Positions 5,280 to 27,860 of a stretch of DNA of 64,000 bases are shown in pieces. This stretch comes from Candidatus Peribacteraceae bacterium (GTDB lineage: Bacteria; Patescibacteriota; Gracilibacteria; Peribacterales; Peribacteraceae), in contig JAQTSK010000002.1 in assembly GCA_028711345.1 (NCBI GenBank), positions 228-64,227 on the forward strand, in the 5' to 3' direction. The notes beneath the pieces are model-generated. The model did no database searches and had not been told where the DNA came from. It worked only from the letters and a program-made list of their open reading frames with translations. The translations under genes and the position numbers were made by a program. The number at the start of each line of letters is the position of its first letter. Within the stretch, counting starts at the first letter, position 1.

Positions 5280-5340
5280 TACGGAGATAAAAGATTCGAA
5301 TCAGGTTAATTCCGTATGACAGGAGTAGAATTGCCGCACT

Positions 5341-9901: not shown

Positions 9902-9917
9902 TGTGGTGGAGATGCCG
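9902..9917. repeat. attL core (orphan copy of the tmRNA 3' end)
   Basis: TGTGGTGGAGATGCCG, identical to 27639-27654. Confidence 0.7.
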
Positions 9918-10021
9918 TACCCGATTATTACTTGTGGAGATGTGAGTTTAACGAGCTGTAGAATTATTCGATATTTAAGCCAAATTGTAAGCATTAGTAT
10001 CCTGAGGAGTAAAATACGTGT

Positions 10022-11824
10022 ATGGGACGATCACACTCAAAAGCATTTCGTAGGCGGATAAATACAGGAAGACCTTTCACTGCGCCCAGACCCATTGCTG
10101 TTCCCGTTTCGATACCCGCCTCTGTGCGATCTCATATCGATTACATGGCCTACGAACGACTTATGAAGGATTACACCGCAGGTTATAAGGCTGCCGACTT
10201 CCTTCCTCACATATGCAGCCTCTCTGCTGTACGGCTTGGCATGGACGATATATTCAACGCACCAGATGGATACATTATCGCATCTTGGGATATGGCCAAC
10301 ATAACTAAGCATTTTCTTCTCAACGAAGACCCCCATAGCACAAAGCCATTTGGAATCAGAGTTGTAGAGCGTGCATGGATGCTTGAGATTAATCGACCTG
10401 AACCCCATCTTGAGAGAGAAATTGCCACTGGTGGTTGGTGGTTACACTTCATACGCGCTGGTTTCATAAGTGTTAAATATCGAAAGAGGATAAACAGCAT
10501 CTTAGGAAGGGCCATTGTTCTCTTCGGAGAAAGTGAGGCTTTTGGTAAGGATGCAGAGCAAATCGCGTTACGTACTCAGATTGAGACATTATTAGGGATG
10601 CGAATCGAGGAGTTTATAAGAATAGTGTTCGGAATATTCGCAACGCAGTTGAAAAATCATGGAATCATCACCATAAAGAATATCCTTGGGTCATCGGACC
10701 CAAAAATGCAGGAGATTATGGAGCCATCTAAGGTTGCTCGCGTCTTGGAATTGCTTTCCATTACGCCTGAGGGATTCCGAGACTTCGCATCACGCAAGCT
10801 CCCTGCTGGCTTAGATGCTTATTGGCTCAATCCCTTGTTTTCCTATCCTATTATTAAGGAAAAGGATGGAGAACAGATCTTCATTCCCATCACATCTCTG
10901 CTCATGCAGAGGGCTACAACGGGCCTTTATCATATGATTCTAAGAGAACTTGAGAAAAAGGGAGGAAAGGAATCACTCATATTCCGTGATTCGTTCGGCA
11001 AACATATCTTTGAGCCATACGTGGGGCTACATATGGCTCAAGCAATACCCTCAGAGAAGCAAAGAAGGGGTATGAAGTACTGTGACCCCCAGAGACCTTC
11101 ACAGCAGATTAGTGACGTAGATGTTTTGGGGTGGGACGCTGAAGGCATCATTTTTGTAGAAACCACTTTGCTTACAGCTTCTTTGGAAACACAGTTAGCC
11201 GTAAGCACAAAGAGCGTGACGGATTATGTAAGAAAATTATCTGATAAAGTGCGCCAACTGCATAAACATCACAAACACAGCGGACTTATTAAGAAAGATG
11301 TTGGAATATCAGAGGTGCTCCCTCATCACTGCGTATTAGTCACATTTCAAGAGCTTCCGATGCCCAATCTTCTTATCCGTTACCTCCTAGAATTAGAGTT
11401 AAATGGCGAACTAGGCACCGATTTTATCTATCACATCGCCTGCATCGATGATTGGGAGCACCTTTGCTCTTCATCCAAGAAGTATGGTATTCCACTTTCT
11501 CGTCTACTCTCAGAAAAAACAGGCGAGGTTCCTACGGGATATGATCTTATGCAATGGGAATGCATAAAGGATTCCGTATTTGCGAAGATAGAACTAAACA
11601 TGCCAGACCCTGAAAAGGAGAAAGCAGGTAAGAAGCCACCTCAGTGGGATATAACCAATACTGCCTTCTCTGAATTTACGGATTTCCTGATGCGCAGATT
11701 CGGTAAAGAGGCCATCGGTTCTGAGATGCTAGATGAAGCACAGAACCGCATGTGGGTAGAAATGGGTATCGATATCCTCGAAGAGCGCAGAGAGGAGAGG
11801 GCAATGCAGGATGGGCAGAATTGA
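10022..11824 (+). CDS. hypothetical protein, paralog of the next gene; PD-(D/E)xK-like C-terminal half with degenerate catalytic motif
   Basis: ..FGKHIFEPYVG..ISDVDVLGWDAEGIIFVETT.. (11111-11167) aligns with the nuclease core of the convergent neighbour, but has E-T-T in place of E-x-K. An alternative start at ATG 10145 is possible. Confidence 0.55.
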   Translation: MGRSHSKAFRRRINTGRPFTAPRPIAVPVSIPASVRSHIDYMAYERLMKDYTAGYKAADFLPHICSLSAVRLGMDDIFNAPDGYIIASWDMANITKHFLLNEDPHSTKPFGIRVVERAWMLEINRPEPHLEREIATGGWWLHFIRAGFISVKYRKRINSILGRAIVLFGESEAFGKDAEQIALRTQIETLLGMRIEEFIRIVFGIFATQLKNHGIITIKNILGSSDPKMQEIMEPSKVARVLELLSITPEGFRDFASRKLPAGLDAYWLNPLFSYPIIKEKDGEQIFIPITSLLMQRATTGLYHMILRELEKKGGKESLIFRDSFGKHIFEPYVGLHMAQAIPSEKQRRGMKYCDPQRPSQQISDVDVLGWDAEGIIFVETTLLTASLETQLAVSTKSVTDYVRKLSDKVRQLHKHHKHSGLIKKDVGISEVLPHHCVLVTFQELPMPNLLIRYLLELELNGELGTDFIYHIACIDDWEHLCSSSKKYGIPLSRLLSEKTGEVPTGYDLMQWECIKDSVFAKIELNMPDPEKEKAGKKPPQWDITNTAFSEFTDFLMRRFGKEAIGSEMLDEAQNRMWVEMGIDILEERREERAMQDGQN

Positions 11825-11825
11825 T

Positions 11826-13610
11826 CTACTTATGATCGTTATTCATGCCATTCTTAAAGAGCTTCTTTCGAGCTTTTACGATGAGCTTATGCATATGTCT
11901 TCCAACGATCTTATATTTATATATTCGCTTCTTATAGCGCGGGTCGAGAGCTAGAAAATCATTGAGAGATATCAGTCTATCGCGATGTTCTAGGGTGTAA
12001 TCCGATAGCAACTTGTGGAATGGTATTCCCCTGTGAATTGAGTCTTCGAGAGCTAAAAGCTCATCCATTGTCATGGTTATAAGGTTCGGAATGCTTAGCC
12101 TACCCTTGGCCATATCACCACGACCTGTGTCCTGATCTGGCTGGAGCTTTGTCTTAAATTCACGAGCAAGAAACCAGGGATGTAATGCAGAATCGAGATG
12201 AGGATCTCGCACAAAAAGAATGGGGAAAATCCTATCTAAGTCTCGTGGGGCTATGCCATTTACGGATACATCTGTGGAAAGATTCTTAATCGCAGTGGCC
12301 AGTTGTTCTGCCCCCCAAGTATTAACGTACTTCTTCCTTAGCTCTTCTAAATACGCTGCATTATCTGTGCCGTATATCACGTTCAGATTCAAGAACGATG
12401 CCTTGATTTCGAGTATGGCTAGTTGCCGATCTAACTTAAGGCCGATGTCCACATCTCCTGACTGCTGAGGTCGAGACATTTCTACGCCTAGCTTGTTTAC
12501 ACGAGCGCAATATATCTTCTTAAAGAAGAAGTGAGTGTAATCCTCAAAGGCTGCTCCGTAGTATCCGATAAGTTCTTGTGCTGGCTTTTTTAGCTTTTTC
12601 CTAATGATGAAGATTGGCCCAGCGGCCGCTCTTTCTGCGAAGAAAAGAGAATCTAAGATGATACCTCTTCCATCTCTGATACGAAGAATGGGCCTATCAA
12701 GCATTACGCGGGCATCAAATGAACCCGCCTCGCTTAGGGTGGCAACATCGAGACGCTCACCCCAGAAGCCTTTTCGTAATTCTTCAATTGTCTGCGACTC
12801 AAATTCCAGATAAGTTCGAACTGCTGGCTTCATAGAATCCAACACTTCATTTCCTGCGCTGTTTATATCGAAAATGCCATTACTATTCTCTGGCTTAGCG
12901 GCAATCTCTGACAGCGTTTTAAGATAGAAATGCGAAACAAGAAAACTCTTGCAGATGTAGTAGTCATCGATCTCAATTCCAGTCGCTTTGCGAAAATCCT
13001 CTCTGAGGGTCGTATAGTGTTTTTCCAGATATTTCTTTCGACAGAATATGGAATGCCCAAACCCTACCCACATCATAGGGTTAATATGGCCTATATAGCT
13101 ACCCTCATGATTTCTGCGTAATGCAAGCATTAATAACTCCCTCCCTTCATCATCTACTGGCCTCGTCGTTATCTGAGCAAAATCTGTAGTATCTAGCCAA
13201 ATCTTATTAGCAATTAACATTGCCTTAGCAAAGGTCTGCCTGACATCTTGTTTTCTGAACGTTTCCCCGTCCCCTTCGCTATTCTTACACCACAGCAATA
13301 CCCATCTCATAAGCTCCAAAAGTCCAGCCCTCATACAGATCACACTCTTGTTAAAGCCCTCAGATTTTTTCCAAACCAGCTCACATTGCTCCTTTGTGAA
13401 GAACCATTGAAGTATTAGTTTCTGTGTTTCCCTACCGTGATTTTCGGGATCAAGTTCTGGGTTTGATACGAGGAGGTTTAGCCGAGCACACCAAATAAGA
13501 GCATCTGTAAGGCTTAAGGTTTGTAAGCACCGTCTTAGATTATCTATATCTGCACCAACTTCTAAAAATACATCTTCAACGCCTAAGAACGATATTACTT
13601 GCGACGTCAT
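11826..13610 (-). CDS. hypothetical PD-(D/E)xK nuclease-like protein
   Basis: ..YGAAFEDYTHF..SGDVDIGLKLDRQLAILEIKASF.. (12402-12458) fits the D..(D/E)xK restriction-endonuclease-like core. The N-terminal 350 aa have no motif I recognise. Confidence 0.6.
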   Translation of the reverse strand: MTSQVISFLGVEDVFLEVGADIDNLRRCLQTLSLTDALIWCARLNLLVSNPELDPENHGRETQKLILQWFFTKEQCELVWKKSEGFNKSVICMRAGLLELMRWVLLWCKNSEGDGETFRKQDVRQTFAKAMLIANKIWLDTTDFAQITTRPVDDEGRELLMLALRRNHEGSYIGHINPMMWVGFGHSIFCRKKYLEKHYTTLREDFRKATGIEIDDYYICKSFLVSHFYLKTLSEIAAKPENSNGIFDINSAGNEVLDSMKPAVRTYLEFESQTIEELRKGFWGERLDVATLSEAGSFDARVMLDRPILRIRDGRGIILDSLFFAERAAAGPIFIIRKKLKKPAQELIGYYGAAFEDYTHFFFKKIYCARVNKLGVEMSRPQQSGDVDIGLKLDRQLAILEIKASFLNLNVIYGTDNAAYLEELRKKYVNTWGAEQLATAIKNLSTDVSVNGIAPRDLDRIFPILFVRDPHLDSALHPWFLAREFKTKLQPDQDTGRGDMAKGRLSIPNLITMTMDELLALEDSIHRGIPFHKLLSDYTLEHRDRLISLNDFLALDPRYKKRIYKYKIVGRHMHKLIVKARKKLFKNGMNNDHK

Positions 13611-13706
13611 AACATGATTATTTTAGCTTTAAATTATTTTCACATAATGGGAAATTTTTTGTAGTGACCTAAGTATTCTGCTTACCCTACATCAAAAAGA
13701 GCACTT

Positions 13707-14660
13707 GTGGTACATTTCGGATACATGGAAATTGCAATGAAGATGAACGTGGCAGATCACCTGAATCGAACGTTTGAAGCTGCGAAGTGTAGGATTGTGC
13801 TTCAGCGGCTTTTTTCGCTAAACAGAAGTAACAACGGCTCCTTAACCTTCAAGTTTAATCCAGAAACAGATTCGCCGATTTATAAATCGGATACAGTCGA
13901 TTGCCTTCAATCTTTGGCTGATGATGGAATAATAGAACTTCCAAGTTTGGAGAAAAAGAGGCAACGAGTTGGAACGGTTACGATAAAAATTCCGCCTGAC
14001 TTTGATTCGAAGTATCAAGATGCAATAAGGAGATGGCCCCTTTTTCATGATGAACTCTCTTCTCATAAGCAGATGAATTTTGTGTACCAGCAGTTACAAA
14101 ACAAGAGTCGTTTCTTGGGAAAGCAGATTGTGGTCATCGGCAATGGAGACCTTGGAGATGGCAAGGAACTACTGCACATCAATCTGCATCGCGCTCTACT
14201 GTCACTGGAGGCAGATGGGAAAATCTCCATCCATTCCATTCAGGCTATACCTCCTGTTCACTGGGTAGAATTTCCAAACAGCAATCATCGCAAGAAGATG
14301 GTCTACGATTTATTGTACGAAGTGAATGTGCAGGGGAGCACACTCCGCGGCGATAACTACATGCTGGACATGAACAGACTTCTCATCACCTTCGACGACG
14401 GACACACGGCTTCATTCAAGGTTGGAACAGAGTCATACAGATTTTTTGCTCTGTTCGCGCAGGATGGCAAACGTTCAGTATCAAATGAGGAATTGGTATC
14501 CCTGCTGTCTTCAACAACGTATGCCTCTGAGCAGGATATTCGCGATGCGGCCAAAGGGATAAGGTTGAGAGTAAGGAGCAGGGTATTACATGCCAAGAGC
14601 GGCAGCGCTCATGACATCATCCGATATAAAAATCAGATGACCTCGCTCCGGGGAATGTAG
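13707..14660 (+). CDS. hypothetical protein with OmpR/PhoB-like winged-helix C-terminus
   Basis: C-terminal ..FKVGTESYRFFALFAQDGKRSVSNEELVSLL....EQDIRDAAKGIRLRV resembles trans_reg_C wHTH. The track start is GTG; ATG 13725 is an alternative. Confidence 0.45.
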   Translation: MVHFGYMEIAMKMNVADHLNRTFEAAKCRIVLQRLFSLNRSNNGSLTFKFNPETDSPIYKSDTVDCLQSLADDGIIELPSLEKKRQRVGTVTIKIPPDFDSKYQDAIRRWPLFHDELSSHKQMNFVYQQLQNKSRFLGKQIVVIGNGDLGDGKELLHINLHRALLSLEADGKISIHSIQAIPPVHWVEFPNSNHRKKMVYDLLYEVNVQGSTLRGDNYMLDMNRLLITFDDGHTASFKVGTESYRFFALFAQDGKRSVSNEELVSLLSSTTYASEQDIRDAAKGIRLRVRSRVLHAKSGSAHDIIRYKNQMTSLRGM

Positions 14661-14905
14661 TGGTAACTTTTTTGGTAACCGAGTACATAGACGCTTCTAC
14701 TGTTTGCAACTGGGCGTTGTTTTAGTCTGGAACAGTGCAGAAGCGCCAATCATCAAAGGTCACCCGTAAGTTCACTCCTTCGAGTGACTTTGACGCGGTC
14801 ATGTTGGAGATCGTGGAGCTGATTCTGAACTCTGGGCAGAACTCAGATTTAACCGCAGTTGATTCTGGGCGTCCGTAATTTCTCTTTTCTACTTTCTTAC
14901 CCAAT

Positions 14906-15226
14906 ATGTCTATGCATATTTACCCTCTAAAAGCTGGCATGATAATGGATTGGGATACTGAACTCTGTGAAGGCAATATCAAGTATTCAGATGTTGATTA
15001 CTTTCCTAGTTGTGAGTGGGGCCGCGAGATATATACAAATAGACTCTTCGAAAAATCACTGATTTTGCTCGATGAGGAAGATATCTGTGTGTTAGAGGAA
15101 GAATTAAAAGAAGGCTGTTGGGATGAACTCCCGGACTTAGAAAAGTCCCTGAAGGCAATGGTTGATTATGCAAGAAAGAATCCCACACCTGATGGGGATC
15201 ACAATTTTATTTGGATCAACATTTAG
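14906..15226 (+). CDS. hypothetical acidic protein
   Basis: 106-aa ORF in the AT-rich island segment, same orientation as the replication module. Confidence 0.4.
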   Translation: MSMHIYPLKAGMIMDWDTELCEGNIKYSDVDYFPSCEWGREIYTNRLFEKSLILLDEEDICVLEEELKEGCWDELPDLEKSLKAMVDYARKNPTPDGDHNFIWINI

Positions 15227-15247
15227 TACCTCCCCGCATTTCTTTCA

Positions 15248-15484
15248 ATGCTTATGACAACCTTCTCCACCAGCGATCTCTCCATTGCCTCCTATGCGAT
15301 AGCGACGGGTGCAAAGTTGCTCCGCCTTGATCGTTCACAGCCTCGGGCAGTCTTTGTGTTGGAATGTGGTCTGAGCGAGGCCGACATGGTGCATCGGTAC
15401 ATGAATCAGCCGGTGCTGGCGAAGGACTTTGCACTCGCGCAGACCCATCTTAAACACAAGCTTTTCTCCTCTGATCGCGATTAA
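15248..15484 (+). CDS. DUF5659-like small protein
   Basis: ..FSTSDLSIASYAIATGAKLLRLDRSQPRAVFVLE.. matches the pattern of DUF5659 proteins, which are common in phage/plasmid-like elements. Confidence 0.55.
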   Translation: MLMTTFSTSDLSIASYAIATGAKLLRLDRSQPRAVFVLECGLSEADMVHRYMNQPVLAKDFALAQTHLKHKLFSSDRD

Positions 15485-15513
15485 TTCCTGCTTATTCCTT
15501 TTCTATCATTAAA

Positions 15514-17829
15514 ATGGATAATCCAAATGATCTACTGATCCGTGCACTGAACTACCTTGAGATGGGCTGGCCTGTAATTCCGGTGAATCAGAACAAGCGG
15601 CCGCGAATCAGCTCATGGAAAGAGTACCAAGAGCGCATGCCTACTACTGAGGAGGTGACTCGGTGGTTCAATGATCCGGGTGCTGTGGGTATGGCACTGA
15701 TTACAGGGCGTCAATCGGGCACCGTTGTTTTGGATGTCGAAAAGGAAGGCCTAGATGAACTTCAGAGACTAGAAATTCCTCAGACTGTCGTTGCGGTAAG
15801 TGGTGGCGGTGGACGCCATATTTACTTCAAGCATCCGGGTTTTGAAGTGTCGAACATGACAAAGATGGATGGGGTTCCGATGGATATCCGAGGAGATGGG
15901 GGCTACATCATTCTCCCGCCATCGCTGCACGCTTCGGGCAATCATTACTTATGGGCAACCGGACCGGGAGACGTTGAGATTGCCGAAATGCCAACATGGC
16001 TCTTGAAAAGAGTACAAAAAACGGGACTTCCGACTTCCATAGCACCGAATGTCAGCAAGAAAACGAAATTTGATTTCGGCGCGAACGTTCCAGAAGGCTC
16101 CAGAAACACCGAGGCTGCGAAAGCAATCGGAGCAATATTGTGTCGGTTGGAAGAGCAGGAGTTTGATTCCAAGGGGTGGTCACTGGCTGACCAATGGAAT
16201 ACCGCCCACTGTGAACCGCCACTGGAGGAGCAAGAACTGCGCGTCATATTTGAAAGTATCAAGAAGTCTCATATTGAACAGCTACATGACCTATTTGCTG
16301 AGAAAAAGAAACCCAAGGAATCAAAGGCCAAGCGGCTGCTAAATTACGTTGATATTGCAGGCGCTGAGCTGTTTCACAATCAGTCCAATGAACCGTTAAT
16401 GCGAGTCACGGTAAATGGTCATCAGGAAATATTCCGTTGTTCGCATAGAACCGAACGCTGCAAGCGGTACCTGACAAAGTTGTTCTGGGACAACGAAAAA
16501 GCATCGATTAAAGTTAGCGACTTGCAGGAGGCCGCAGATCTACTGGGTGCTCGAGCGTTCCACGATTCCCCAATGAGGGAACTTTCGAACAGAGTCGCTC
16601 GTCACGATGGAGCAATTTTCTATGATTTATCTGATAAAGAATGGAGAGCGGTGCGGATCACTCAGAACGGATGGGAAGTTCTTGCTAACCCTCCGATACT
16701 CTTTGCGCGGGAAGAGCATCAATTGCCTCAGGTCGAACCACTAAAGAGTGGTGGTAATGCCAAGAAGATCCTGGAATATATCAATATTGCTAAGCCCGAG
16801 CATAAGCTCCTGTATCTGGTACAAATCATCTCCTATTTTATCCCCAATATTCCTCATCCCGTAGCGGTATTTCACGGCAAGCCGGGATCAGCCAAGAGTA
16901 CGGCGACGAAAATGACCAAAATGCTGGTAGACCCCTCACAGATGGAAGCATTCACGTTGTCGCGGGATGAAGCGCAAATGGTACAACAACTTTCCCATCA
17001 CTATCTCGGTGCATACGACAATATTGACTATCTGAATCCGGAACAGTCCGATGCCCTTTGCCGTGCCGTAACCGGTGGCGGTTTCTCAAAACGAGCTCTT
17101 TACTCCGATGACGACGATAAGATCTACCACTACCGCAGGTGCATCGTCCTGAACGGCGTAAGCCAAGCCAGCACCAGAACCGACCTTCTGGATCGGAGCA
17201 CCCTCTTTGAGCTTGAGAGGATCCCTGATGATGTTCGCCTTACTGAGCGTGAATTATGGGAAAATTTCAGGAAAGATTTACCCGTTATTCTCGGAGGAGT
17301 TTTTGATGTGATTGCGGAAGCAATGCGGCTGCAACCTACGGTCAAATTAGTCCAACATCCACGTATGGCTGATTTCGCGGAGTGGGGATGCGCTATCGCA
17401 CTCGCCCTTGGCTACACCCAGGAAGAATTCGAGTCGTCGATTAACCTGAATAAGAAGGATCAGCACGAAACTGTTCTGAGCGAGGATGCTGTTGCCTCGT
17501 CTCTACTCAAATTTATGGCTAATCATGGTGAATCATGGCAGGGAACAGCAACAGATCTCCTGATTCACCTAGAAGACAATGGTCTGCGAGGCAGACGCCT
17601 GCCCACTGCGAATGCTCTTTCAAGACGCCTAAACCTCATTGGCTACAACTTGGAAGCCGCAGGCATCAAATTTGAGCGGGGATATAAAGACAACCAGCGC
17701 CTGATTATTCTCACAAAAATACCGTCGGTATCGTCGGAATCAATTCCAGAGAAAAGTGACGACAAGAACCGTACTGACGATACCGACGATGAAAATGGTG
17801 CACTCAAGCGACCTCGGGTTGTTTACTAA
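15514..17829 (+). CDS. bifunctional primase-polymerase (Prim-Pol) / PriCT / P-loop helicase replication protein
   Basis: N-terminal GWPVIPV..KRP...W..GMALITG....VVLDVE..GGGGRHIYF..DIRGDGGYIILPPS. PriCT-like EGSRNTEA...EEQELRVIFESI. Walker A GKPGSAKST. Confidence 0.85.
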   Translation: MDNPNDLLIRALNYLEMGWPVIPVNQNKRPRISSWKEYQERMPTTEEVTRWFNDPGAVGMALITGRQSGTVVLDVEKEGLDELQRLEIPQTVVAVSGGGGRHIYFKHPGFEVSNMTKMDGVPMDIRGDGGYIILPPSLHASGNHYLWATGPGDVEIAEMPTWLLKRVQKTGLPTSIAPNVSKKTKFDFGANVPEGSRNTEAAKAIGAILCRLEEQEFDSKGWSLADQWNTAHCEPPLEEQELRVIFESIKKSHIEQLHDLFAEKKKPKESKAKRLLNYVDIAGAELFHNQSNEPLMRVTVNGHQEIFRCSHRTERCKRYLTKLFWDNEKASIKVSDLQEAADLLGARAFHDSPMRELSNRVARHDGAIFYDLSDKEWRAVRITQNGWEVLANPPILFAREEHQLPQVEPLKSGGNAKKILEYINIAKPEHKLLYLVQIISYFIPNIPHPVAVFHGKPGSAKSTATKMTKMLVDPSQMEAFTLSRDEAQMVQQLSHHYLGAYDNIDYLNPEQSDALCRAVTGGGFSKRALYSDDDDKIYHYRRCIVLNGVSQASTRTDLLDRSTLFELERIPDDVRLTERELWENFRKDLPVILGGVFDVIAEAMRLQPTVKLVQHPRMADFAEWGCAIALALGYTQEEFESSINLNKKDQHETVLSEDAVASSLLKFMANHGESWQGTATDLLIHLEDNGLRGRRLPTANALSRRLNLIGYNLEAAGIKFERGYKDNQRLIILTKIPSVSSESIPEKSDDKNRTDDTDDENGALKRPRVVY

Positions 17830-17952
17830 AATGTTTCCTAGTAATACTGAAATGCACGAATCGACGACAATCCCCCCCCTTTAGGAAAAACGCTTGAATT
17901 GCCAATATAGGCTGTATAATACGAGTTAAAGCCTCTTTCGGCCAATATTAAG

Positions 17953-18183
17953 ATGACGAATCCTTCTCCAAGGCCTCCCCCGATGGAGGGGCTTCTTGAA
18001 CGCTTGCGTCTTATCCGTGGCGAAGCCGAACGGCTCTACTACCTATCAGATATTTTAGGTCGGCAGGGACAGCGCGAAGCGAGCTACAGACAGAAGCGTG
18101 CCGGAGACTTCGCCATGCAGGAGTGGAAGAGGGTGAATGCCCAGTACCGCGCACTGTGGAAGAAACAACGATGTAAGCGCTAG
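17953..18183 (+). CDS. hypothetical small helical protein
   Basis: 76-aa ORF directly upstream of the tyrosine recombinase. Bracketed by GCCAATAT motifs. Confidence 0.35.
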   Translation: MTNPSPRPPPMEGLLERLRLIRGEAERLYYLSDILGRQGQREASYRQKRAGDFAMQEWKRVNAQYRALWKKQRCKR

Positions 18184-18229
18184 TAGAAGCCAATATTGAC
18201 GTTGACTATCTGATGTTCTGAAATAATAA

Positions 18230-19186: not shown

Positions 19187-19295
19187 AGGTTCCTCATCAA
19201 AAGTGCGAATCCCTCGACACCAAGGACACACGACCATGCCGCTTCCATGCTACAAAGCGTTGACGTTCACAGATGAACACGAAGAGCGATCCTAC

Positions 19296-20420
19296 CTACA
19301 GAATGCTCACGTCGAGCAACTGCTTCACTGCCCCGACCACCTTCTTCTTTTCGACGCCGAGGAGAGATGCGACCGTAGTTTCCATTTCCTGACGTGCATT
19401 CTTCACTTCCTTTTTTCGTTGCTTGGGATCTTCGCCTGGTTTTTCTTGTCTGCCAAAGACCGCATGGTACTTCTCCACTGCTTGTTGCACTTTGGCGCGG
19501 ACAACTGCTGAGACCTCGGTGGGTGCTGACGTTTGTGGGCGTGGCTGCTCGGCTGCGGGAGCGACGAGCGGTGTTGTCACTGCCTTCACTGTCGTAGGTA
19601 TAGGAGCAGGCGGAGTTTTGACGGAAACCGGAGGAGTGGGGGCTGTTGGCGCTACGGCTTGCGGTTTGGGTGCTACAGATTTGGGGAGTGTCACCGGGGT
19701 CGGCAGTGTTGAGAGCAGGACACCGGGAAGTTGGCCTCTCAGTTTCTGCAAAAACTCATGGGCTCGCGCTTCGCCACCGTTAACAGCTGCAACGAAGAGC
19801 GCGACTTGCTCACTCTTGCGTGTGGCCAAGTAGAAAATGACCTGATCGGAGTACCCCACGCGCCTCAGCATCTCCCACTCGGTTTGCTGCAACGTGAACA
19901 TTTCCGCTGCCAGTGCTTTATCCAGTGCAGCAAAATCAGAGAAGCGCATTTTGGCTATGTCCGCCGCAACCGGAGAAGGGGGCAGCACTATCTCATCCTT
20001 CTTGCTCGCTTGCGCTGCCAATGGTTGCAGTTGCGTCTGCTCACGACCAGCCGTGTCACCTTTGGCTATGATCGGCGGTGGGGTGGGCGCCGCAGGCGTG
20101 GATACGGGAGAAGGAGCGGTCTTCTGAGGTAAAGGCGGCTTAGAGGTCATTGCAGATGGACGCTTCTGCCCCGGGACATGCGCGGGTCCTTGATGCTGAG
20201 CAGGAGTCGACTTGCCACCTTCATGTTGCCCACCCGATTTCTGCTCCGGTTTCCTTGCCACGGGTTGCCCTTTCTGCGCTGCGGCGACTGTGGCAATGGC
20301 GTCTTTCGTGTCAGTGCGCATGGCATCCGCTGGCTTGGGCGTTGACGCCATGGGTGCCACGCGTGTTTCTTCTCGCGGTCTTTCGGTTTCCCTGCGGATA
20401 GCGGTGTGGTGCTCGCACAT
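19296..20420 (-). CDS. hypothetical Pro/Ala-rich protein with a small central globular segment
   Basis: Long P/A/T/K low-complexity arms flank ..[45 protein letters not shown]... First ATG at 20420, 11 nt after the giant ORF stop. Confidence 0.5.
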   Translation of the reverse strand: MCEHHTAIRRETERPREETRVAPMASTPKPADAMRTDTKDAIATVAAAQKGQPVARKPEQKSGGQHEGGKSTPAQHQGPAHVPGQKRPSAMTSKPPLPQKTAPSPVSTPAAPTPPPIIAKGDTAGREQTQLQPLAAQASKKDEIVLPPSPVAADIAKMRFSDFAALDKALAAEMFTLQQTEWEMLRRVGYSDQVIFYLATRKSEQVALFVAAVNGGEARAHEFLQKLRGQLPGVLLSTLPTPVTLPKSVAPKPQAVAPTAPTPPVSVKTPPAPIPTTVKAVTTPLVAPAAEQPRPQTSAPTEVSAVVRAKVQQAVEKYHAVFGRQEKPGEDPKQRKKEVKNARQEMETTVASLLGVEKKKVVGAVKQLLDVSIL

Positions 20421-20431
20421 AGTGAGAAAGG

Positions 20432-23400
20432 TTAGAGAATGAGAGCTTGAGCGTGGTTGCGCCAATCCTCTCGGGTATTGAGGACAGGTTGATTAGATTG
20501 TACCGCTAAACGGAAAGTGTCAATATTATCGCGGACGGCATGGAAGAGTGTGTAGCTGTTGGGATCCCGTGCCCACTGATTAATCGCATCGAAGTACAAA
20601 TTTTGCGTGGGGATGACTGCCAATTCTGCGTGTCCTAGGAAGGTATGAGCGACCTGCGGATTGCCTGCACCGTACACTCCGGTATACGGGTTATAAGTCC
20701 AGGGGGCATCCAGGAGGTGTGAGTGATCTCCTAGGATTTCTTCGTGCCGACGGATGTACTCCTTTCCTGCTTCTGCAAATGGTCCGTTGTGTTCGGCATG
20801 CATGCATGCCGTGTGCACGGCTTGAATGATGCGGGCGTCAGCCGGTTCCAGCACACCCAACACATCAGTCCGCCCGGTACCCCAGCTGAAGGGGAGCGAG
20901 GCGCGTGCGCCCTGCGCGTCGTAACTGATGATTGCCCCGTTTTCTACGCCCGATCCGACCGTCGTCTGGAAATCCTCCGGCACGTAGCGGATCGCTCTAC
21001 TCGCGGCCAACAGGTAACTGGTGGCAAGCACACCGCAATTCCTGAGGCTTAAGCGTCCTGGGCAGCAAACCTGCAATTCCGGTTGCTCGCGGACGCCATG
21101 CCTCTGATTCAAGACTCTGCCTGCATTGAGTACCCACACGCGCAATTCAAACTCTTCTGTAGTAGGAACCGGGGGCAGATTCGCCGATTTCAGCGCATGC
21201 AGCAGGCGGAATCCGGTGCTGTTCCACCCTAATGCCGCGTTGATGACGTTGATTTGCGCGGCACCCATTTCCGAATGAGTGTGAGCCTTCCCTCCGATGG
21301 GAGACATGCCTTTGACGGTTTCTCGACTTTCACGAATGCTCTGGGCAAAGGGAGGAATGTGATCGCTGATCAGTGTGCGCATTTCTTTCCTGGTGAGTGT
21401 GCCTGCGCGCAGTGCTTGCTGTAGATCTCGCCGCACGGGCAGCGTCAGCGCATGGAGCGAATGTTCTGATGGAATAGGGAGGTCGGATGTATCGATCGTA
21501 TCAGCTTTGTCCGCCCCATCCCCATTGAACGGCATTCCAGTGGGTGAGAGATGCGAGGCGAGTGCCACCCTGCCCATTTGACGTCTGAGAAATGTGGAGA
21601 GGAGGAAGACGTAGCAGCGGAAAGAGTCTTCCGTACTCCGCAAGCTTGCCGCTTCCATTTCCGTGGGTGCGGTCTTCACCGAAATACCGAACGATTCCGT
21701 GGGGAACGACTGGACATCGGCGGCGATGGCGGCCAATTCATTGACTTGAAACTCCTCTGCCAGAATGTGATGCACCACCTGACGCGCACCATCATCCGTG
21801 AGCCCGGCCATCTGCCGCAGCAATGCGGAGACTACCTTCATCTGCTTCTGCACCTCCGTACGCACCTCCGGTGCCACTGTCTTCGGTCGGTGCCTGTCTT
21901 CTTCCTCATCTTCGTCCTCTCCCCAGTTGCGGACGAGGAGCTGTCCGATCTGCGCGACCAAGTGAGCAATGGACTCATGCAGAATCGGGTCACCGGTACT
22001 GATATGGCGGTCTGTGCACCAGTCCACGATGGTATGGGCATCGTCCGGACCGACGCATGCGGCCAATTTTCCGGTCAGTTCTTGTGCTTTGGCTGACTCG
22101 ACTTGTCGCTCGACTCGCTCTTCCGTCCATGGCAGCGTACTGATGACGTTGGGCGTGAGTTTCGCATCGGAATTCATCCCCGCACGCACAATCGCAGCGA
22201 TGTCACCGGTGGCAAAATGCTGCTGTGCACCGGATTGCAGGATTGTTGCCACGCGGTCCAATGTCCTGCGCAGCTCATGCAGGCGGTACGATTGCAGACT
22301 CGTTTGGCACTGACCCAAGACCTCCGTCACTTCCTGATGAAACTGCTGTCGGACTTCCTCCACAAAACGGGCACGCGCTTCCGCACTGTCAGCTTCTAGC
22401 TGCTCCTTACGTCTCTCGTTCTGCCGCTTCAGGCGGTAGGAGTTCGGGGGGCTGTACCCCAATGCTTTCTCATTCATTGCAAGATGGTCGATTTCAAATT
22501 GGCATGCAGCGATCTGGTCCTGCCTCTCGCGCTCCGCAACCTCAGGGAGGCGGGTGGCGTCACTGCGCGGGTCATCTTGGAACTTCGCTTGGACGGCCTC
22601 CGTCACCTCAAGATGGATCGGCGCAAAGACCCATGCCAGGATTGTCTTCACATCCTCCTCAGCAAGGAGGTCAAGTCCGTGGAGGTCTAAGAGCCGCGAT
22701 AGGGTGCGGTAGGGTTGCTCTTCCGCAAGGCGCAGTTCTTCACGGTCCGAGAATCGTGGCCCCGTCCCATTGGGGATCACCTGTGTTTCATCGATGTCGT
22801 CTCTGAAGCGCGTCTCCAGTTCGCGCAGCGTATGTTCATCGTCATAGACGGGTTCTCCCTGGTGCGGATACTGGCGCTCCAACCGGTCCAGTACGTCGAT
22901 GAGCCACGCGGGCGGTTGCAGGGGATGTTCTACCCGCGTCGCGCAATATCGGGCGTAGATCGCAGCGAGCAGGGGACCCCGGTAGGATCCCAAGCGGGAG
23001 AATGCAGCATGGAATTGTTGCAGATCCGTGAGAGATGAGGGCGAGCGCTCTGGGGGGGGGCCGGAGGGAGGCGGGTAGTCGCGGAGGGACAATGCGTGCT
23101 CCGAGGCAATCCCCGGCTTGCCGTGAACTGGCAGGCGTAGACGCTCCGGGAGCGGTCGATCGATACTGGTGAGGAGTTTCACTACTTCCTGTGGCGTTGC
23201 GTGGAGGGGGTCCGCGCGCTCCTGGACTCGATGTCTGCGGTCTCCATATGGATCATCATCCTCCTGTGTAACTCTTCCTTTGGATTGATCGAATGCATCT
23301 GCAAGTGCCGTGAGGCAGGGCTTCTGGAAGCTGGTCTGGGGCGTGGTGGTCTCCAAGATGCCCATCATCGGAGATACGGGCTTCTGTTTTTCTAGGAAAA

Positions 23401-25588
23401 TGAGGAATTCCTCCAGAGCAGCCGAACGCCGCTTCGTCGTTGTCTGCTCTATGAGTGCCAGAACATGGCGGAGGACATTGGTCGCTCGCAAGGGATTACC
23501 GATGCCATACCACTCCGTCACGCGCACGGTGCAATCGATCGCGCGTTCCTGTCCGATCCCCTCCATTGCTCCCAGCTGATATCCAGCGCGCTTGTAGGTT
23601 TCCAGTGCGTACTCGTACAGCGGTCCAGCGCGTCTGGCCATGGCCAGCGAGAGTGCGCACCCTTCTTGATTCGGCTCCACAGCGATACCGTGGCGGTAGC
23701 GAAACAAAGCGCGTCCCATTTCTTGCTCCTGCGGCCAGGTGGTGGGGATATGTTTGTGGTTCACGTATTCCTGTCTGGTGAATTCATCCTCTTCCCTCTC
23801 TTCGTCGTAATCATAAGTATTGTAAAAACCAGCACGCCTGGCCCGATACTCCATTTTTCTGATCTCCCGCAATTCACCACGAAGGGAACTGATTGCATGT
23901 TGCAAGGCATGTGCTTTCCAATCCTCAACACGACTCTGTATTTCAACTAATTCTCTTTCATCCACTAATCCCAATCCATCCACATCGACAATGCGTTGCG
24001 TGAGCTCCTTCGTGCATTGATGTCTTTCGGGATTGCAGTAGCGATCCATGACCATGGTACAACGTTGCGGGTTGACTCCTTGTTCCGATAAGCACGGAAG
24101 GTCGCGGAGAAAGGCGATTACAAAGTCCTTGCGAATATCCTCGATCGAGATCCAGGCGCCATGTTCACGCAGGAACGTGATGGCCTGCGGGTTGATTTCT
24201 CCTAGGGCTTCCTGTGCAGTTGTGAGGAGCTCCCACGTGTGCGCATCGGTTCCCTCGGGAGGGGTATTGGTTTCAGCCGGATCGAACGTCTGCTCGGCCA
24301 GACCAGCCTTCTCATTAAACCACCAAGGCAATTTTCCATTGCCGTAGATCGCCTGCACCAGATCAATGCCGTAGAGCACAGCGGCAGAGAGATCACCCGC
24401 AGCGGCGACTTTGCGAATGAGTGTAGTGAGCGATGCCATCCGCAATCCCTGTCTTAGGAACGCAGGCAGAGAGTGTAGAAAATCAATGATCCGTTCCTGT
24501 TCCAGATCTGTGCGAGTCAGCGTGTGATCAATGACGAATCCCACAGCTTCCGGCGTTAAATCGCGCATTTGTTCCTGTAACTGGCGGATGACTGCGCATT
24601 GTTCCGGTGGAAGGTGCCTCATGCGAAAGGGTGACTTTTCTTCTTGCGCGTTGCATACCAAGGGTGCGGTATGCTCCAAGCATTGCGCGATAAAGTCCGG
24701 CGGGAAGAACATGTGTCGGCGCATGGCAAAAGCCCCGCCCGCCATGGTCTCCGTACACTCCTTGGCCCACTGAAGCGGTGGTAAGCGGTGTGGCTGCGTT
24801 TTGCGGTAATGAACCGGCGCACCGAACTGAGCGTAGAACGAAGGCCAACCCATCCACGTTGCCTGCGCGCGCGCCTGTCCACCCTGCTTGAGGCGCAATT
24901 GTTCTAAACTGTAGAGCACAGCGATTTCCTGCTGTAGGATGGGGCCATTTCTGTACCGGCCGTACTGCAATTCAATTGTGTTATCCCCGCGCCATGTTAT
25001 GTACCCAGGTGACAAGGGAGCGCGTCGATCGATTACGCGTCGTTGCGTTGCGATCAGTTCTTCGGAGTTATCGTGGGCAAGGTAACGGACACTGTCGTAC
25101 TGGTTGACGTACGCGCGTCCGAAGTTGAATCCGGTATTGGGATTGCCGTGCTGCGATTTGCGGATGTTGTGGTCCGGCGGCAGTCTGAGGAGGAGCTTAC
25201 TGGTGCTCCCTGGTACATCCTCCGCCAAGCGGTACGTGAACCGGTCCGGGAGATCCGGTTGGGGGTAGGCGCTGCGTTCTCCGCTCCTGCCGTTCATCAT
25301 TTCCAAAAGCTCCCACTCTTCCTGTTCCTCGGGTGTCCGTTGCTGTCGCTCTTCCCCGCATTCTTCGCGCTCTCTATCATGCTCAGCCCAGTAGAGGTCC
25401 GTATTTCTGCGCCGTTGCTGCTCCTCGGGATCGTCATCTTCATCGCGGTAGCGGCTGCTCCTGAGCCCTGGCAGACCAGTGAGATGCATAGATATTAAAA
25501 TTGAAAGAGTGGAGCATTTTAACAAAAGTGACAAATAATGCAAATCATTATCTGATGTATCTTCAGCGGGGAGGGTATGGAACCTCAT
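20432..25588 (-). CDS. orphan giant protein (1718 aa)
   Basis: An uninterrupted 5.2-kb ORF cannot arise by chance. No P-loop, HExxH or other motif I recognise. Acidic, helical-looking N-terminal two thirds and a denser C-terminal 350 aa. The start is uncertain (25588 or 25489). Confidence 0.7.
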   Translation of the reverse strand: MRFHTLPAEDTSDNDLHYLSLLLKCSTLSILISMHLTGLPGLRSSRYRDEDDDPEEQQRRRNTDLYWAEHDREREECGEERQQRTPEEQEEWELLEMMNGRSGERSAYPQPDLPDRFTYRLAEDVPGSTSKLLLRLPPDHNIRKSQHGNPNTGFNFGRAYVNQYDSVRYLAHDNSEELIATQRRVIDRRAPLSPGYITWRGDNTIELQYGRYRNGPILQQEIAVLYSLEQLRLKQGGQARAQATWMGWPSFYAQFGAPVHYRKTQPHRLPPLQWAKECTETMAGGAFAMRRHMFFPPDFIAQCLEHTAPLVCNAQEEKSPFRMRHLPPEQCAVIRQLQEQMRDLTPEAVGFVIDHTLTRTDLEQERIIDFLHSLPAFLRQGLRMASLTTLIRKVAAAGDLSAAVLYGIDLVQAIYGNGKLPWWFNEKAGLAEQTFDPAETNTPPEGTDAHTWELLTTAQEALGEINPQAITFLREHGAWISIEDIRKDFVIAFLRDLPCLSEQGVNPQRCTMVMDRYCNPERHQCTKELTQRIVDVDGLGLVDERELVEIQSRVEDWKAHALQHAISSLRGELREIRKMEYRARRAGFYNTYDYDEEREEDEFTRQEYVNHKHIPTTWPQEQEMGRALFRYRHGIAVEPNQEGCALSLAMARRAGPLYEYALETYKRAGYQLGAMEGIGQERAIDCTVRVTEWYGIGNPLRATNVLRHVLALIEQTTTKRRSAALEEFLIFLEKQKPVSPMMGILETTTPQTSFQKPCLTALADAFDQSKGRVTQEDDDPYGDRRHRVQERADPLHATPQEVVKLLTSIDRPLPERLRLPVHGKPGIASEHALSLRDYPPPSGPPPERSPSSLTDLQQFHAAFSRLGSYRGPLLAAIYARYCATRVEHPLQPPAWLIDVLDRLERQYPHQGEPVYDDEHTLRELETRFRDDIDETQVIPNGTGPRFSDREELRLAEEQPYRTLSRLLDLHGLDLLAEEDVKTILAWVFAPIHLEVTEAVQAKFQDDPRSDATRLPEVAERERQDQIAACQFEIDHLAMNEKALGYSPPNSYRLKRQNERRKEQLEADSAEARARFVEEVRQQFHQEVTEVLGQCQTSLQSYRLHELRRTLDRVATILQSGAQQHFATGDIAAIVRAGMNSDAKLTPNVISTLPWTEERVERQVESAKAQELTGKLAACVGPDDAHTIVDWCTDRHISTGDPILHESIAHLVAQIGQLLVRNWGEDEDEEEDRHRPKTVAPEVRTEVQKQMKVVSALLRQMAGLTDDGARQVVHHILAEEFQVNELAAIAADVQSFPTESFGISVKTAPTEMEAASLRSTEDSFRCYVFLLSTFLRRQMGRVALASHLSPTGMPFNGDGADKADTIDTSDLPIPSEHSLHALTLPVRRDLQQALRAGTLTRKEMRTLISDHIPPFAQSIRESRETVKGMSPIGGKAHTHSEMGAAQINVINAALGWNSTGFRLLHALKSANLPPVPTTEEFELRVWVLNAGRVLNQRHGVREQPELQVCCPGRLSLRNCGVLATSYLLAASRAIRYVPEDFQTTVGSGVENGAIISYDAQGARASLPFSWGTGRTDVLGVLEPADARIIQAVHTACMHAEHNGPFAEAGKEYIRRHEEILGDHSHLLDAPWTYNPYTGVYGAGNPQVAHTFLGHAELAVIPTQNLYFDAINQWARDPNSYTLFHAVRDNIDTFRLAVQSNQPVLNTREDWRNHAQALIL

Positions 25589-26021
25589 TCATAGCACGAT
25601 CTTTTGATTCTTGAGCATCAGCCTGTTGTTGAGGTATCCGATTAGTTTGCGCATCTTTGTCGTTGTTCGGTTAGGGGCAAGTTTACAGGCCGCGCGATTT
25701 TCCTATTCCATAAACCGCATTAGCACCCCCTACACCAACACTGTCCCGCTTCGACTACGTTGACACTTGAAACGGATAAATTCAGCACTAGGGGCTGCTA
25801 ATTAGCGTGTAGGGGTAGGTATGTAGACGGGACAGAAACAATGAGGCGATTCCACCCAGTTTTTGAGTTTTGATGGAATGTTGCGGGTGACGAGCATCGC
25901 GGGACTCGGATGTAGGAGATATATTTCTCCGATCACAATACAAACCAGCTTCCTTTCATTTGTCAGCATGAAATACCAGCCATGAACAGAAAACTCCAAA
26001 ACTCCAAAAGTTTCCAATATA

Positions 26022-27860
26022 ATGGCTTACATGAGAACAACTCGAACAGACGCAAGGAAGCCGCGGCGCGTTGCTCAGTACATTCGCGTTTCGACTTTGG
26101 AGCAGGCGAAAGAGGGGAACAGCCTTCAGGGACAGCAGGACAGCTTGGCGAAGTACATCGAATCCAATGCAGACAGCGAGAACAATTGGGTCACCAGCAA
26201 GACGCTCGTTTACGTTGATGATGGATACTCCGGTGCGGACGATGAGCGACCCGAGTTCAAGCGCATGATGCGTGACGCCAAAGAACGGAAGTTCGACGTG
26301 CTACTTGTTTGGAAGATTGATCGGCTGTTCCGCAACACGCTCCTGCTTCTGGAGACGATCAAGGAGCTGAAGAAATATGGCGTGGAGTTCGCCTCGAAGA
26401 ACGAGCTGATCGACACGTCCAAGTCCACAGGCAGATTCCTCCTGACGATTCTTGGCGCCATTGCCGAGATGGAGCGCGAGACCATCCGCGAGCGCACAAT
26501 CATGGGCAAGATTACGAGCGCAAAGAACGGAAATTACGTCGGAGGAAAGTACCCGCCCTTCGGTTATGACGTGGATAAGCACGGCAAGATGGTCATCAAC
26601 AAAGACGAGGCAAAAATCGTACTTGAAATATTCACGATGCTCGTAGAAGAGAAGAAGACCCAAACACAGATTGCCAAGATACTCACTGCCCGCAGAGTTC
26701 CCACGAAGTCAGACCGCGTGGGAGTGGAGCGTCGGACGAATCAGGTGGGTTTTTGGGGTCAGGCTGCGATCGCTGCGATTTTACTGAAGGACGAATATGC
26801 AGGAACGTACTACTACGGCAAGCGTGAGACCTACCTGAACGAGAACGAAGACAAGCGCCAGCGGGAACGCCCCCGTGAGGAATGGATTCCTCTGCCGTGC
26901 CCCGAGATCATCCCGAAACCCATGTTCGACAAGGCGCGACTGATTGCGCGTGAGAACGAGCAATATTCCATTCGTGCCTCGGATCATGTCTACCTGCTCC
27001 GCAGCAAAGTCTACTGCGGCGAATGCGGCGGCAGATACCAAGGCTATCCCAAGAAGAAAAAGGGCATCGTGTACTTCAATTACCATTGCAGCCGGAAGAA
27101 TCCGGGCAAGAGTGAGAAGCCGTGCTTGAACAAAGAGATGTCCGAAAAGAAGCTGGATGTCATCGTATGGAAGACAATCGATGAGCTGCTCAGTGATCCC
27201 AAAGCAACGCTCAAGGCGTTCGATACCAAGATGCGAGAAGAGTCGAAGGCTGCCGAGTACCAGTCTCAGATTAAAGATTATCAAGATGAGCTGGATGAGA
27301 AGGACAAGGAGCTGGGACGCTTGGTGGCTGCCATGAAGCGAGGGAAGATGTCCGATGCGATCTACGACAATGAGGTGGACACGACCAATACCGAGATGGC
27401 GACCATCCGTACCGAAATTGCCCGACTCGGGAATCTCCTTTCCACAGAGCTGGAGCGAGAAGAGCTGAAGAAGTCACTGGCGAGACTTGCGACCGAATAT
27501 CGCAAGAAATACGGCAAAATTGACCGGAAGACACAGGAAGTGATCATCCGAAAGCTTGTAAACAAAGTGGTTATCCACGCTTCGGGCAAAATCACTGTGG
27601 ATTACGCAATCCCGACAATTCAAAATCGGGTATTTAAATGTGGTGGAGATGCCGGGAGTCGAACCCGGGTCCAACGTGTACGCCGACGGTCAGTACGATC
27701 ATGGTCTTCTCAGTTCTCTCATCCCCTGAGAGAAGAACAGAGAAAGGGTGAGAGTGATGACGCTGTATTCAGGAGTCCGTCACGTCAGTCGGAATCCAAC
27801 CCCGCTAGTGACGTTTCACCCGTCCAGCGAGGATCAACGGGGAAACGTGGTCCGAAGTGA
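26022..27860 (+). CDS. large serine recombinase (integrase); last 68 codons are antisense ssrA
   Basis: Resolvase catalytic domain VAQYIRVSTLEQ..DDGYSG..RPEF, recombinase domain, zinc ribbon CGECGG..YHCSRK, coiled-coil. The ORF reads through the att core into the tmRNA gene. Confidence 0.85.
   Translation: MAYMRTTRTDARKPRRVAQYIRVSTLEQAKEGNSLQGQQDSLAKYIESNADSENNWVTSKTLVYVDDGYSGADDERPEFKRMMRDAKERKFDVLLVWKIDRLFRNTLLLLETIKELKKYGVEFASKNELIDTSKSTGRFLLTILGAIAEMERETIRERTIMGKITSAKNGNYVGGKYPPFGYDVDKHGKMVINKDEAKIVLEIFTMLVEEKKTQTQIAKILTARRVPTKSDRVGVERRTNQVGFWGQAAIAAILLKDEYAGTYYYGKRETYLNENEDKRQRERPREEWIPLPCPEIIPKPMFDKARLIARENEQYSIRASDHVYLLRSKVYCGECGGRYQGYPKKKKGIVYFNYHCSRKNPGKSEKPCLNKEMSEKKLDVIVWKTIDELLSDPKATLKAFDTKMREESKAAEYQSQIKDYQDELDEKDKELGRLVAAMKRGKMSDAIYDNEVDTTNTEMATIRTEIARLGNLLSTELEREELKKSLARLATEYRKKYGKIDRKTQEVIIRKLVNKVVIHASGKITVDYAIPTIQNRVFKCGGDAGSRTRVQRVRRRSVRSWSSQFSHPLREEQRKGESDDAVFRSPSRQSESNPASDVSPVQRGSTGKRGPK
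27639..27654. repeat. attR core within the ssrA 3' end
   Basis: TGTGGTGGAGATGCCG. Its reverse complement is the CGGCATCTCCACCA acceptor/CCA end of the tmRNA plus 2 nt. Confidence 0.7.

Follow-up and report, generated by a model that had tools for sequence, protein, structure and literature searches.

Reviews and databases credit integration into tRNA and tmRNA genes (tDNAs) to tyrosine integrases (PMC4383910, PMC5704250), and the only published exception that we found is a group of islands in the ssrA (tmRNA) gene of Dehalococcoides that carry the serine recombinase DsiB (PMC3146451). Hudson, Lau and Williams (2015) stated that no integrases outside the tyrosine family were known to use tDNAs as targets (PMC4383910); elements with serine recombinases are described as inserting in protein-coding genes and disrupting them (PMC4383910, PMC5704250), also in the review of integrative mobilizable elements (IMEs; PMC5704250), and tRNA is unmentioned in the main text of the large survey of large serine recombinases (LSRs) by Durrant et al. 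The Dehalococcoides islands are bounded by ssrA and a 20-nt repeat and form tandem arrays (McMurdie 2011, BMC Genomics 12:287; PMC3146451). DsiB, a serine recombinase of 540 aa, is encoded by a gene that always overlaps the attachment site (att); its stop codon lies beyond the island, in some cases within ssrA (PMC3146451), and McMurdie 2011 raised the speculation that a complete integrase exists on the circular form alone (PMC3146451). Further proteins encoded there are DsiA, a small serine recombinase, and a primase-like protein of 700 aa; the six-gene module of the islands consists of DsiB, DsiA, RecF-like and ParB-like proteins, a Mom-like protein with an embedded pseudo-tRNA, and the primase-like protein (PMC3146451). 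Here we describe a comparable island in the genome of an uncultivated groundwater bacterium of the Peribacteraceae, within the candidate phyla radiation (CPR). The window, that is, the whole stretch of 64,000 nt that was analysed, comprises positions 228-64227 of contig C91 in a metagenome-assembled genome (MAG) of 1.77 Mb (93 contigs, ~92% complete). Its positions 9918-27638, about 17.7 kb, constitute, with a probability that we put at about 0.85, one integrative plasmid-like element inserted by an LSR at the extreme 3' end of ssrA (Table 1).

Judged against the published description, this element is of the same design as the DsiB islands and represents a new example in a CPR bacterium. Similar to those islands, it lies between ssrA and a directly repeated copy of the 3' end of ssrA, has at its ssrA-proximal edge a serine recombinase gene that overlaps att with its 3' end and stops outside the island, encodes a large primase-like protein (about 700 aa there, a Prim-Pol protein here), has no transfer genes and is accompanied by extra repeat copies from serial or tandem integration. 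The small second serine recombinase recurs only in related elements, namely those of genomes G094 and G041 and of the groundwater metagenome contig L023, whereas the window has a Xer-like tyrosine recombinase instead. The host phyla also differ (Patescibacteria/CPR, Peribacteraceae, versus Chloroflexota), and in place of the six-gene module there is a set of DUF5659, Prim-Pol and 76-aa proteins without RecF, ParB, Mom or pseudo-tRNA; domain scans of the window detected no ParB, Mom or RecF domains and no extra tRNA was found in it. Finally, the Dehalococcoides repeat measures 20 nt and is positioned mid-T-loop (PMC3146451), whereas here it measures 16 nt, 14 of them in ssrA, with the predicted crossover in ACCA. 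Among the 120 LSR homologues listed, none bears a Dehalococcoides name; the likeness to DsiB is one of described design.

The repeat TGTGGTGGAGATGCCG is present in exact form at both ends of the island, with no third match in the window at up to two mismatches. In shuffled sequence 0.03 matches are expected, and two or more were obtained in 0 of 100 shuffles. The whole genome contains just two exact copies, those of the window, so that the 16-mer is not a dispersed repeat; a one-mismatch match on contig C49 falls within a GTPase-like coding region with no tRNA close by and was set aside as chance. ARAGORN and Rfam RF00023 agree on the placement of the tmRNA on the minus strand (106.6 bits, model positions 1-374 of 374), and because of this placement the right copy of the repeat equals the last 14 nt of ssrA, including CCA, plus 2 nt. 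An earlier note, made from the letters of this DNA alone, had proposed exactly such an island in the 3' end of ssrA with 16-nt bounds and this make-up of the right copy; both points are borne out by the attL and attR copies and the complete ssrA, the ends of which are now fixed by the Rfam model. The genes that it named, for serine and tyrosine recombinases, a Prim-Pol/PriCT/helicase protein, a DUF5659 protein and orphan cargo, are all present.

The serine recombinase at the right edge has the Pfam domain order Resolvase (PF00239, E = 1.4e-38), Recombinase (PF07508, E = 1.5e-15) and zinc ribbon (PF13408, E = 5.6e-10). It thus has the composition by which LSRs were recognized, a resolvase domain with the catalytic serine, a Recombinase domain and a zinc ribbon in a protein of about 450-700 aa. 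The YIRVSTLEQ motif is conserved, all residues that are invariant among 12 aligned homologues are present, and comparison with solved structures gives matches to TP901-1 integrase and SPbeta SprA/YokA. No identical sequence is on record for this protein or for the left-flank protein. The earlier note had the gene abutting ssrA; it does adjoin, but in fact its open reading frame (ORF) overlaps ssrA by 220 nt. In the integrated state the gene has no stop codon of its own, and a 612-aa frame reads CGGDA across the att core and continues through 68 antisense ssrA codons. With the element ends joined at the core, the frame stops after 14 more codons, giving a predicted protein of 558 aa that ends in CGGDAVPDYYLWRCEFNEL. 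The length of the antisense extension depends on the host: in most relatives the frame stops two codons on, at the TGA of the antisense T-loop, and in the junctions that were read at L020, L021 and L023 this TGA comes from the T-loop UUCAA, whereas the T-loop of the host genus is UUCGA (antisense CGA), likewise in the island-free genome G001 of the same genus, and in the absence of a TGA the LSR frame therefore runs 68 codons further. GGDAG, a peptide that is the translation of the antisense tmRNA 3' end, is present at or close to the C-terminus in each of the ten homologues that rank closest in the protein collection (56-71% identity). Seven of the ten stop one residue past it, with S, N or T as the last residue, and the ORFs of P0006 and P0009 continue into antisense ssrA, as does that of G083. 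The homologue P0008 was not in the alignment, and its C-terminus was read separately.

Close homologues of the LSR were detected by tblastn in four other Peribacteraceae genera (58-72% identity), and a further one on contig L023; all five overlap the ssrA 3' end. Identity of the window LSR is 72% to the G094 protein, 67% to that of G041 and 71% to that of L023. Every close homologue with readable context is convergent with ssrA and overlaps its 3' end, by 22 nt in G041/G045 (L020), G042/G162 (L021), L023 and G094, and by 130 nt in G083. Across the 151 Peribacteraceae genomes surveyed, the tmRNA-type LSR (at least 58% identity) is found in five, which belong to five different genera, and this patchy distribution was counted as support for mobility. 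Of 19 LSR homologues in the family, 17 adjoin a convergent tRNA or tmRNA 3' end, many with an overlap of exactly 22 nt. The tmRNA-associated LSRs of Peribacteraceae form a clade in a maximum-likelihood tree (100/100), which is nested within a Peribacteraceae LSR clade (98/96) with other members at tRNA 3' ends; a group at tRNA-Ile is likewise recovered (100/100), and a separate clade (99/98) comprises LSRs of Bdellovibrionota, Desulfobacterota and Nitrospirota, also at tDNAs. Target labels change 12 times on this tree versus a mean of 21.6 for shuffled labels, and none of 200 shuffles gave a value that low. On the evidence of tree and gene context, the LSR belongs to a broad lineage with subclades each at a particular tRNA or tmRNA gene. 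The Bacillota LSRs sampled in the tree are not at tDNAs; in the sampled Bacillota and archaeal loci, which are distant relatives among the matches listed, no tRNA or tmRNA gene was found at the LSR 3' end, and one archaeal locus has a tRNA 1.2 kb upstream of the LSR.

Two further sets of loci were observed in this context. The host genome encodes a second LSR (C21:35793-37509, 33% identical), a 584-aa ORF ending in GASDGNRTHDIQDHNLAL that runs into a convergent tRNA-His(GTG) gene, and this locus looks like another element of the same design. Among the loci L139-L148 (Gracilibacteria and Altimarinota), distant LSR relatives lie at a convergent tRNA-Arg(GCG) gene in four of the eight Gracilibacteria loci sampled; three of these LSRs overlap its 3' end, and the table-11 ORF of L143 stops 32 nt short. 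Translation with table 11 interrupts the ORFs of these relatives, in keeping with the use of code 25.

When the island ends are joined, the reconstructed attP has a 22-bp spacer, which includes the core, flanked by perfect 9-bp inverted repeats (AATCGGGTA-N22-TACCCGATT). The arms covary among related elements, being AATCAGTTA/TAACTGATT in G042 and AAACGGGTA/TACCCGTTT in G094, and those of G041 pair at 8 of 9 positions. The conserved left end of the element extends past the P' arm to about 9961. The attL cores of G094 (TGGTAGCGATGCCG) and G041 (TGGTAACGATGCCA) differ from ssrA solely to the right of TGGT, which corresponds to ACCA of the tmRNA and holds the centre of the spacer, and for this reason we infer that the crossover occurs within TGGT; to its left, the flanks diverge immediately, or one base further left in G094. 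As read from these sequences, the site combines inverted half-sites around a central crossover with a short attP/attB identity. In related elements, continuous identity at the junction can be as short as 4-5 nt. From this comparison, the 16-nt repeat of the window is best understood partly as half-site similarity between attP and attB and partly as coincidence, because 2 nt fall outside ssrA, and not as an overlap of the tyrosine type.

A blastp comparison between the complete ORF sets of four elements (window, G094, G041 and L023) shows that the backbone genes of the island, coding for the DUF5659, Prim-Pol and 76-aa proteins and the LSR, recur with their order unchanged in G094 and G041, whereas the cargo varies. 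The DUF5659 protein is 77% identical to its G094 counterpart and 37% to that of G041, the Prim-Pol protein 58% (over 743 aa) and 36%, and the 76-aa protein 75% and 71%. The last is more conserved than the replicase, and this basic helical protein is a candidate accessory or directionality factor. In G094 and G041 a small serine recombinase gene follows the gene for the 76-aa protein, and in L023 one lies directly upstream of the LSR. No small serine recombinase was found in the window, where the Xer-like tyrosine recombinase occupies its slot. The cargo ORF of 600 aa is weakly similar to its 594-aa neighbour (23% over 179 aa, E = 8e-4), and PHROGs and PADLOC gave no match for the cargo beyond the primase and the tyrosine recombinase, with neither a phage nor a defence call. 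In IMG/VR the best relatives of the LSR are just 28% identical and the pattern of core plus P' arm is absent, giving no sign of a virus.

Since the use of tRNA and tmRNA 3' ends is the textbook trait of tyrosine integrases (PMC4383910, PMC5704250) and an exact 16-nt repeat is typical of these enzymes, a classical tmRNA island has to be considered, in which the intact tyrosine recombinase, scored as 'Phage integrase', integrated by means of the 16-nt identity and the LSR is cargo or serves another role. We regard this as highly improbable. The tyrosine recombinase gene lies mid-island, more than 8 kb from either end, and its product is Xer-like, with XerA, XerD and XerH as the best solved-structure matches and no arm-binding domain. 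It is missing from the G094, G041 and L023 elements, which share the site and the attP arms and have resolvase-type genes instead; from genus to genus, it is the LSR and not the tyrosine recombinase that goes with the ssrA site, and the 4-5 nt of continuous identity at the crossover in relatives is too little for the usual overlap of the tyrosine type. The integrase is therefore most likely the LSR by sequence and context, and the tyrosine recombinase probably resolves multimers, or arrived independently or with the GC-rich cargo block. That block marks a sharp step in G+C content (GC) near 18 kb, from 0.453 (9918-17900) to 0.551 (17901-27638; genome 0.546), exactly where the second recombinase gene is found. 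The earlier note had described this contrast correctly and had taken the island for a composite, and tandem arrays at ssrA are known both in relatives and in Dehalococcoides (PMC3146451). Independent integration of an AT-rich Prim-Pol element and a GC-rich serine-recombinase element nevertheless seems improbable to us: no third core, P arm or P' arm occurs inside the island at up to three mismatches; the shared backbone covers both zones, with DUF5659, Prim-Pol and the 76-aa protein on the AT-rich side and the LSR on the GC-rich side, and co-occurs in the same order in G094 and G041; and the P arm in the LSR gene, at the GC-rich end, recurs exactly and in inverted form as the P' arm of the AT-rich end. 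By gene order and att sites, the island is a single element with mosaic cargo and not two in tandem, and the composite reading is weakly supported; the GC-rich block with the tyrosine recombinase and the 389-aa and 1718-aa ORFs looks like a swapped-in module.

Present-day mobility of this probably LSR-inserted element is presumed from the sequence, and several observations weigh against it or against the LSR model as a whole. The 68-codon antisense tail might impair the LSR in the integrated state, which could leave the element immobile. The 3' terminal 17 nt of ssrA are invariant in 11 of 11 family members, whereas no two of them agree in the flank downstream; of the presumed attB, the half on the ssrA side is thus kept across hosts and the left half is not. 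A non-conserved half-site is unusual for an enzyme that binds both half-sites. Furthermore, the empty site that the earlier note suggested looking for in related genomes was not recovered. In G001, which has no LSR, the unoccupied ssrA is followed by a small terminator-like hairpin and three genes without a match in the host genome, a different downstream flank and not a precise empty site. Neither an attB empty site nor an attP circle was recovered from metagenome contigs scanned with one degenerate pattern that matches all four att forms, the sole match being L035, an attL-type remnant 1.2 kb from the ssrA of another organism. A rival reading takes the element for a fixed, immobile relic: through insertion in a host with no TGA in the T-loop, the integrase would have acquired 68 aa of nonsense sequence as a tail, and what was an island would by now be variable chromosome. 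The ORF extension is real, junction evidence was found neither in metagenome contigs nor in IMG/VR, and decayed relatives exist (L035, with attL plus 1.2 kb and no LSR; attL remnants in G041 and at 8867-8917). We consider this relic reading unlikely, though less so than the other two rivals: none of the backbone ORFs is truncated, their identity to the G094 counterparts is 58-77%, the att sites and 9-bp arms are perfect, and P0006, P0009 and G083 also read on into ssrA, so that the extension appears to be tolerated.

The left flank carries traces of repeated use of the site. To the left of the attL copy, the minus strand has a hairpin at about 9872-9909 and, after it, a T7 run at 9855-9861. 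The earlier note had interpreted them as the displaced original ssrA terminator. Hairpin and T7 run do exist, but the folding energy is not better than that of shuffled sequence (z = -0.94) and a simple terminator scan did not call the site, so that the displaced-terminator reading is at most plausible; no terminator-like site was found just downstream of ssrA in the integrated state. The sequence GAGCGAAGTG to the left of attL was tried as a conserved attB arm and ruled out, given that unoccupied relatives have unrelated flanks there. The orphan left fragment reported in the earlier note is an exact copy, but it is not the sole orphan: about 1 kb further left lies an older diverged module, for which a terminator-like site was called at 8877-8856, and which is probably the scar of an earlier integration. 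Hairpins resembling repetitive extragenic palindromes (REPs) form a small family (CCACGCGAAGC-stem-loop-stem-GCGAAGTGTGG) with compensatory stem changes at 8867-8917, 9866-9909, C48:31778 and C59:12605, those of C48 and C59 being only loosely similar to the attL hairpin. The two copies just outside attL are each followed by an ssrA-end-like fragment.

Related loci contain similar remnants. G094 has an exact ssrA-end copy 755 bp outside attL, and G041 has three extra ssrA-end-like copies outside attL. At L033 (G041:C10, 2921-4440) a stretch of 1.5 kb outside or at attL contains four ssrA-end-like copies. G042-type P' arms accompany two of these, which points to serial integrations by different members of the element family. 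L035 (ORMF011002091.1, 5326-6560) is a decayed relative with an intact attL and P' arm 1.2 kb from ssrA and no recombinase; a DUF4238/SEC-C gene lies between attL and ssrA. Given the decayed copies at 8867-8917 and in relatives, ssrA is a hotspot that has been used repeatedly in series, and the original left flank may be located beyond attL, further to the left. A gene of the G001 locus (L016, 10380-10636) that is homologous to window positions 5321-5578 is located 3.2 kb from ssrA versus 22 kb here, and therefore the whole 5580-27638 stretch is variable.

We propose the following scenario. The free circle would replicate through the Prim-Pol/helicase module (DUF5659, Prim-Pol and the 76-aa protein) and would carry attP inside the 3' end of the LSR gene. 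LSR dimers would pair attP with attB, which comprises the ssrA 3' end and its downstream flank, cleave at a dinucleotide in the centre, inside TGGT (ACCA, made up of the discriminator base and CCA), and then rotate and religate the ends. With a TGGT-centred exchange in which the element resupplies just the last few bases, ssrA would survive intact, and the old downstream hairpin and T-run would be displaced by 17.7 kb, to attL. Integration would strip the LSR gene of its last 14 codons and stop, that is, of the tail VPDYYLWRCEFNEL after the core-encoded CGGDA, and read-through from ssrA could run antisense into the LSR gene, with possible antisense interference. The attP-encoded tail conforms to V-P/T-D-Y/F-Y-L/I-x-R/C-x-E/D and ends 11-14 codons past GGDA in the elements read to the stop; four tails of the G042 type (G042, L035 and two remnant copies of G041) share the stop position. 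Third codon positions of the tail vary most (8 of 10, versus 5 and 4), and a crude pairwise count of synonymous to nonsynonymous changes gives 35:100, near a rough, uncomputed expectation without constraint, and does not tell constraint on the protein from constraint on the DNA site. It is a speculative and rather doubtful idea that the two LSR isoforms, with the circle-encoded peptide or the host-encoded end, together with antisense read-through, act as an excisionase-free switch, maybe throughout the lineage in CPR and Bdellovibrionota. Such a tail-swap design is nonetheless a testable idea on directionality control.

The element shares features with two better known classes. The phage-type LSRs (A118/LI, TP901-1, Bxb1, phiC31, SPbeta SprA) likewise have Resolvase, Recombinase, zinc ribbon and coiled coil, an integrase gene that adjoins attP, and inverted half-sites around a central crossover; here, however, the 3' tip of an RNA gene is the predicted target and is left intact, and attP lies inside the integrase coding sequence, so that integration alters the protein C-terminus. 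Islander-type tyrosine islands (Williams 2002; Hudson, Lau & Williams 2015) have the same arrangement of tDNA, island and orphan 3' fragment with the target preserved, form hotspots with tandem remnants, and have related integrases that switch among tDNAs, but the recombinase family and chemistry differ, and a few target bases rather than a long 3' segment are resupplied here. The window provides a complete, undecayed CPR example with both junctions, covarying attP half-sites and a crossover placed, by prediction, within four bases. Island finders that require tyrosine integrases will miss such elements. The serine integrases of this group, with a conserved, non-disruptive landing site (the 17 invariant nt of ssrA in 11 family genomes), may also be of interest as tools. 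As far as we are aware, mobile elements and gene flow are poorly understood in CPR genomes.

Table 1. Features of the ssrA island and its borders (window coordinates).
Feature	Position	Strand	Remarks
Older diverged module: ssrA 3'-end fragment GTGTGGCGGAGATG, hairpin, T-rich tail	8867-8917	-	hairpin z = -2.96
Hairpin CCACACUUCGCUCCC-UGCG-GGGAGCUUCGCGUGG and T7 run	9855-9909	-	directly downstream of orphan ssrA fragment
attL core, orphan ssrA 3' fragment	9902-9917		exact 16-mer copy
P' arm of attP, TACCCGATT	9918-9926		perfect inverted repeat of 27624-27632
Cargo ORF, 600 aa	10022-11824	+	no family match
Cargo ORF, 594 aa	11826-13610	-	no family match; paralogue on C11
Cargo ORF, 317 aa	13707-14660	+	no family match
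ORF, 106 aa	14906-15226	+	no assigned function
DUF5659 protein, 78 aa, backbone	15248-15484	+	Pfam PF18903, E = 1.2e-5
Prim-Pol/PriCT_1/helicase-type replicase, 771 aa, backbone	15514-17829	+	Pfam PF09250, E = 1.7e-34; PHROG primase and helicase
Basic helical protein, 76 aa, backbone	17953-18183	+	no family match
Xer-like tyrosine recombinase, 318 aa	18230-19186	+	Pfam PF00589, PF02899
Pro/Ala-rich ORF, 389 aa, cargo, GC-rich block	19296-20465	-	
Orphan ORF, 1718 aa, cargo, GC-rich block	20432-25588	-	no paralogue in genome
LSR	26022-27860	+	Resolvase, Recombinase, Zn_ribbon_recom; crosses attR and extends antisense into ssrA by 220 nt
P arm of attP, AATCGGGTA	27624-27632		inside LSR coding sequence
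attR core	27639-27654		exact 16-mer copy; predicted crossover in TGGT 27641-27644 = tmRNA ACCA
ssrA (tmRNA)	27641-28040	-	full length, CCA encoded; predicted integration target; ARAGORN, Rfam RF00023

Elsewhere in the host genome, two loci on contig C11 resemble parts of the island. A paralogue of the 594-aa cargo protein (C11:9460-11103, 32% over 559 aa) adjoins tRNA-Ala, and a module of DUF5659 and Prim-Pol-helicase genes (C11:29084-31153, 41% identity) is found near tRNA-Cys; both loci are probably further integrated elements.

At 12240-13931, the G001 locus L016 encodes a protein of about 560 aa that is rich in Cys and has a treble-clef zinc finger at its C-terminus, and more than 30 paralogues of it (about 30-46% identity) are distributed across the host genome, often in tandem (C59, C77). 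A 1437-aa isoleucyl-tRNA synthetase with embedded histidine-phosphatase domains (window 32703-37016) is conserved in G001 (L016 1893-6206), where it adjoins ssrA; about 4.6 kb, with radical SAM, DUF4395 and Lgt genes, lie between them in the window. Finally, an IS1595-family transposase (DDE_Tnp_IS1595 and zinc ribbon) is encoded at window positions 847-1797, between an LPG-synthase-like gene and an ABC transporter operon.

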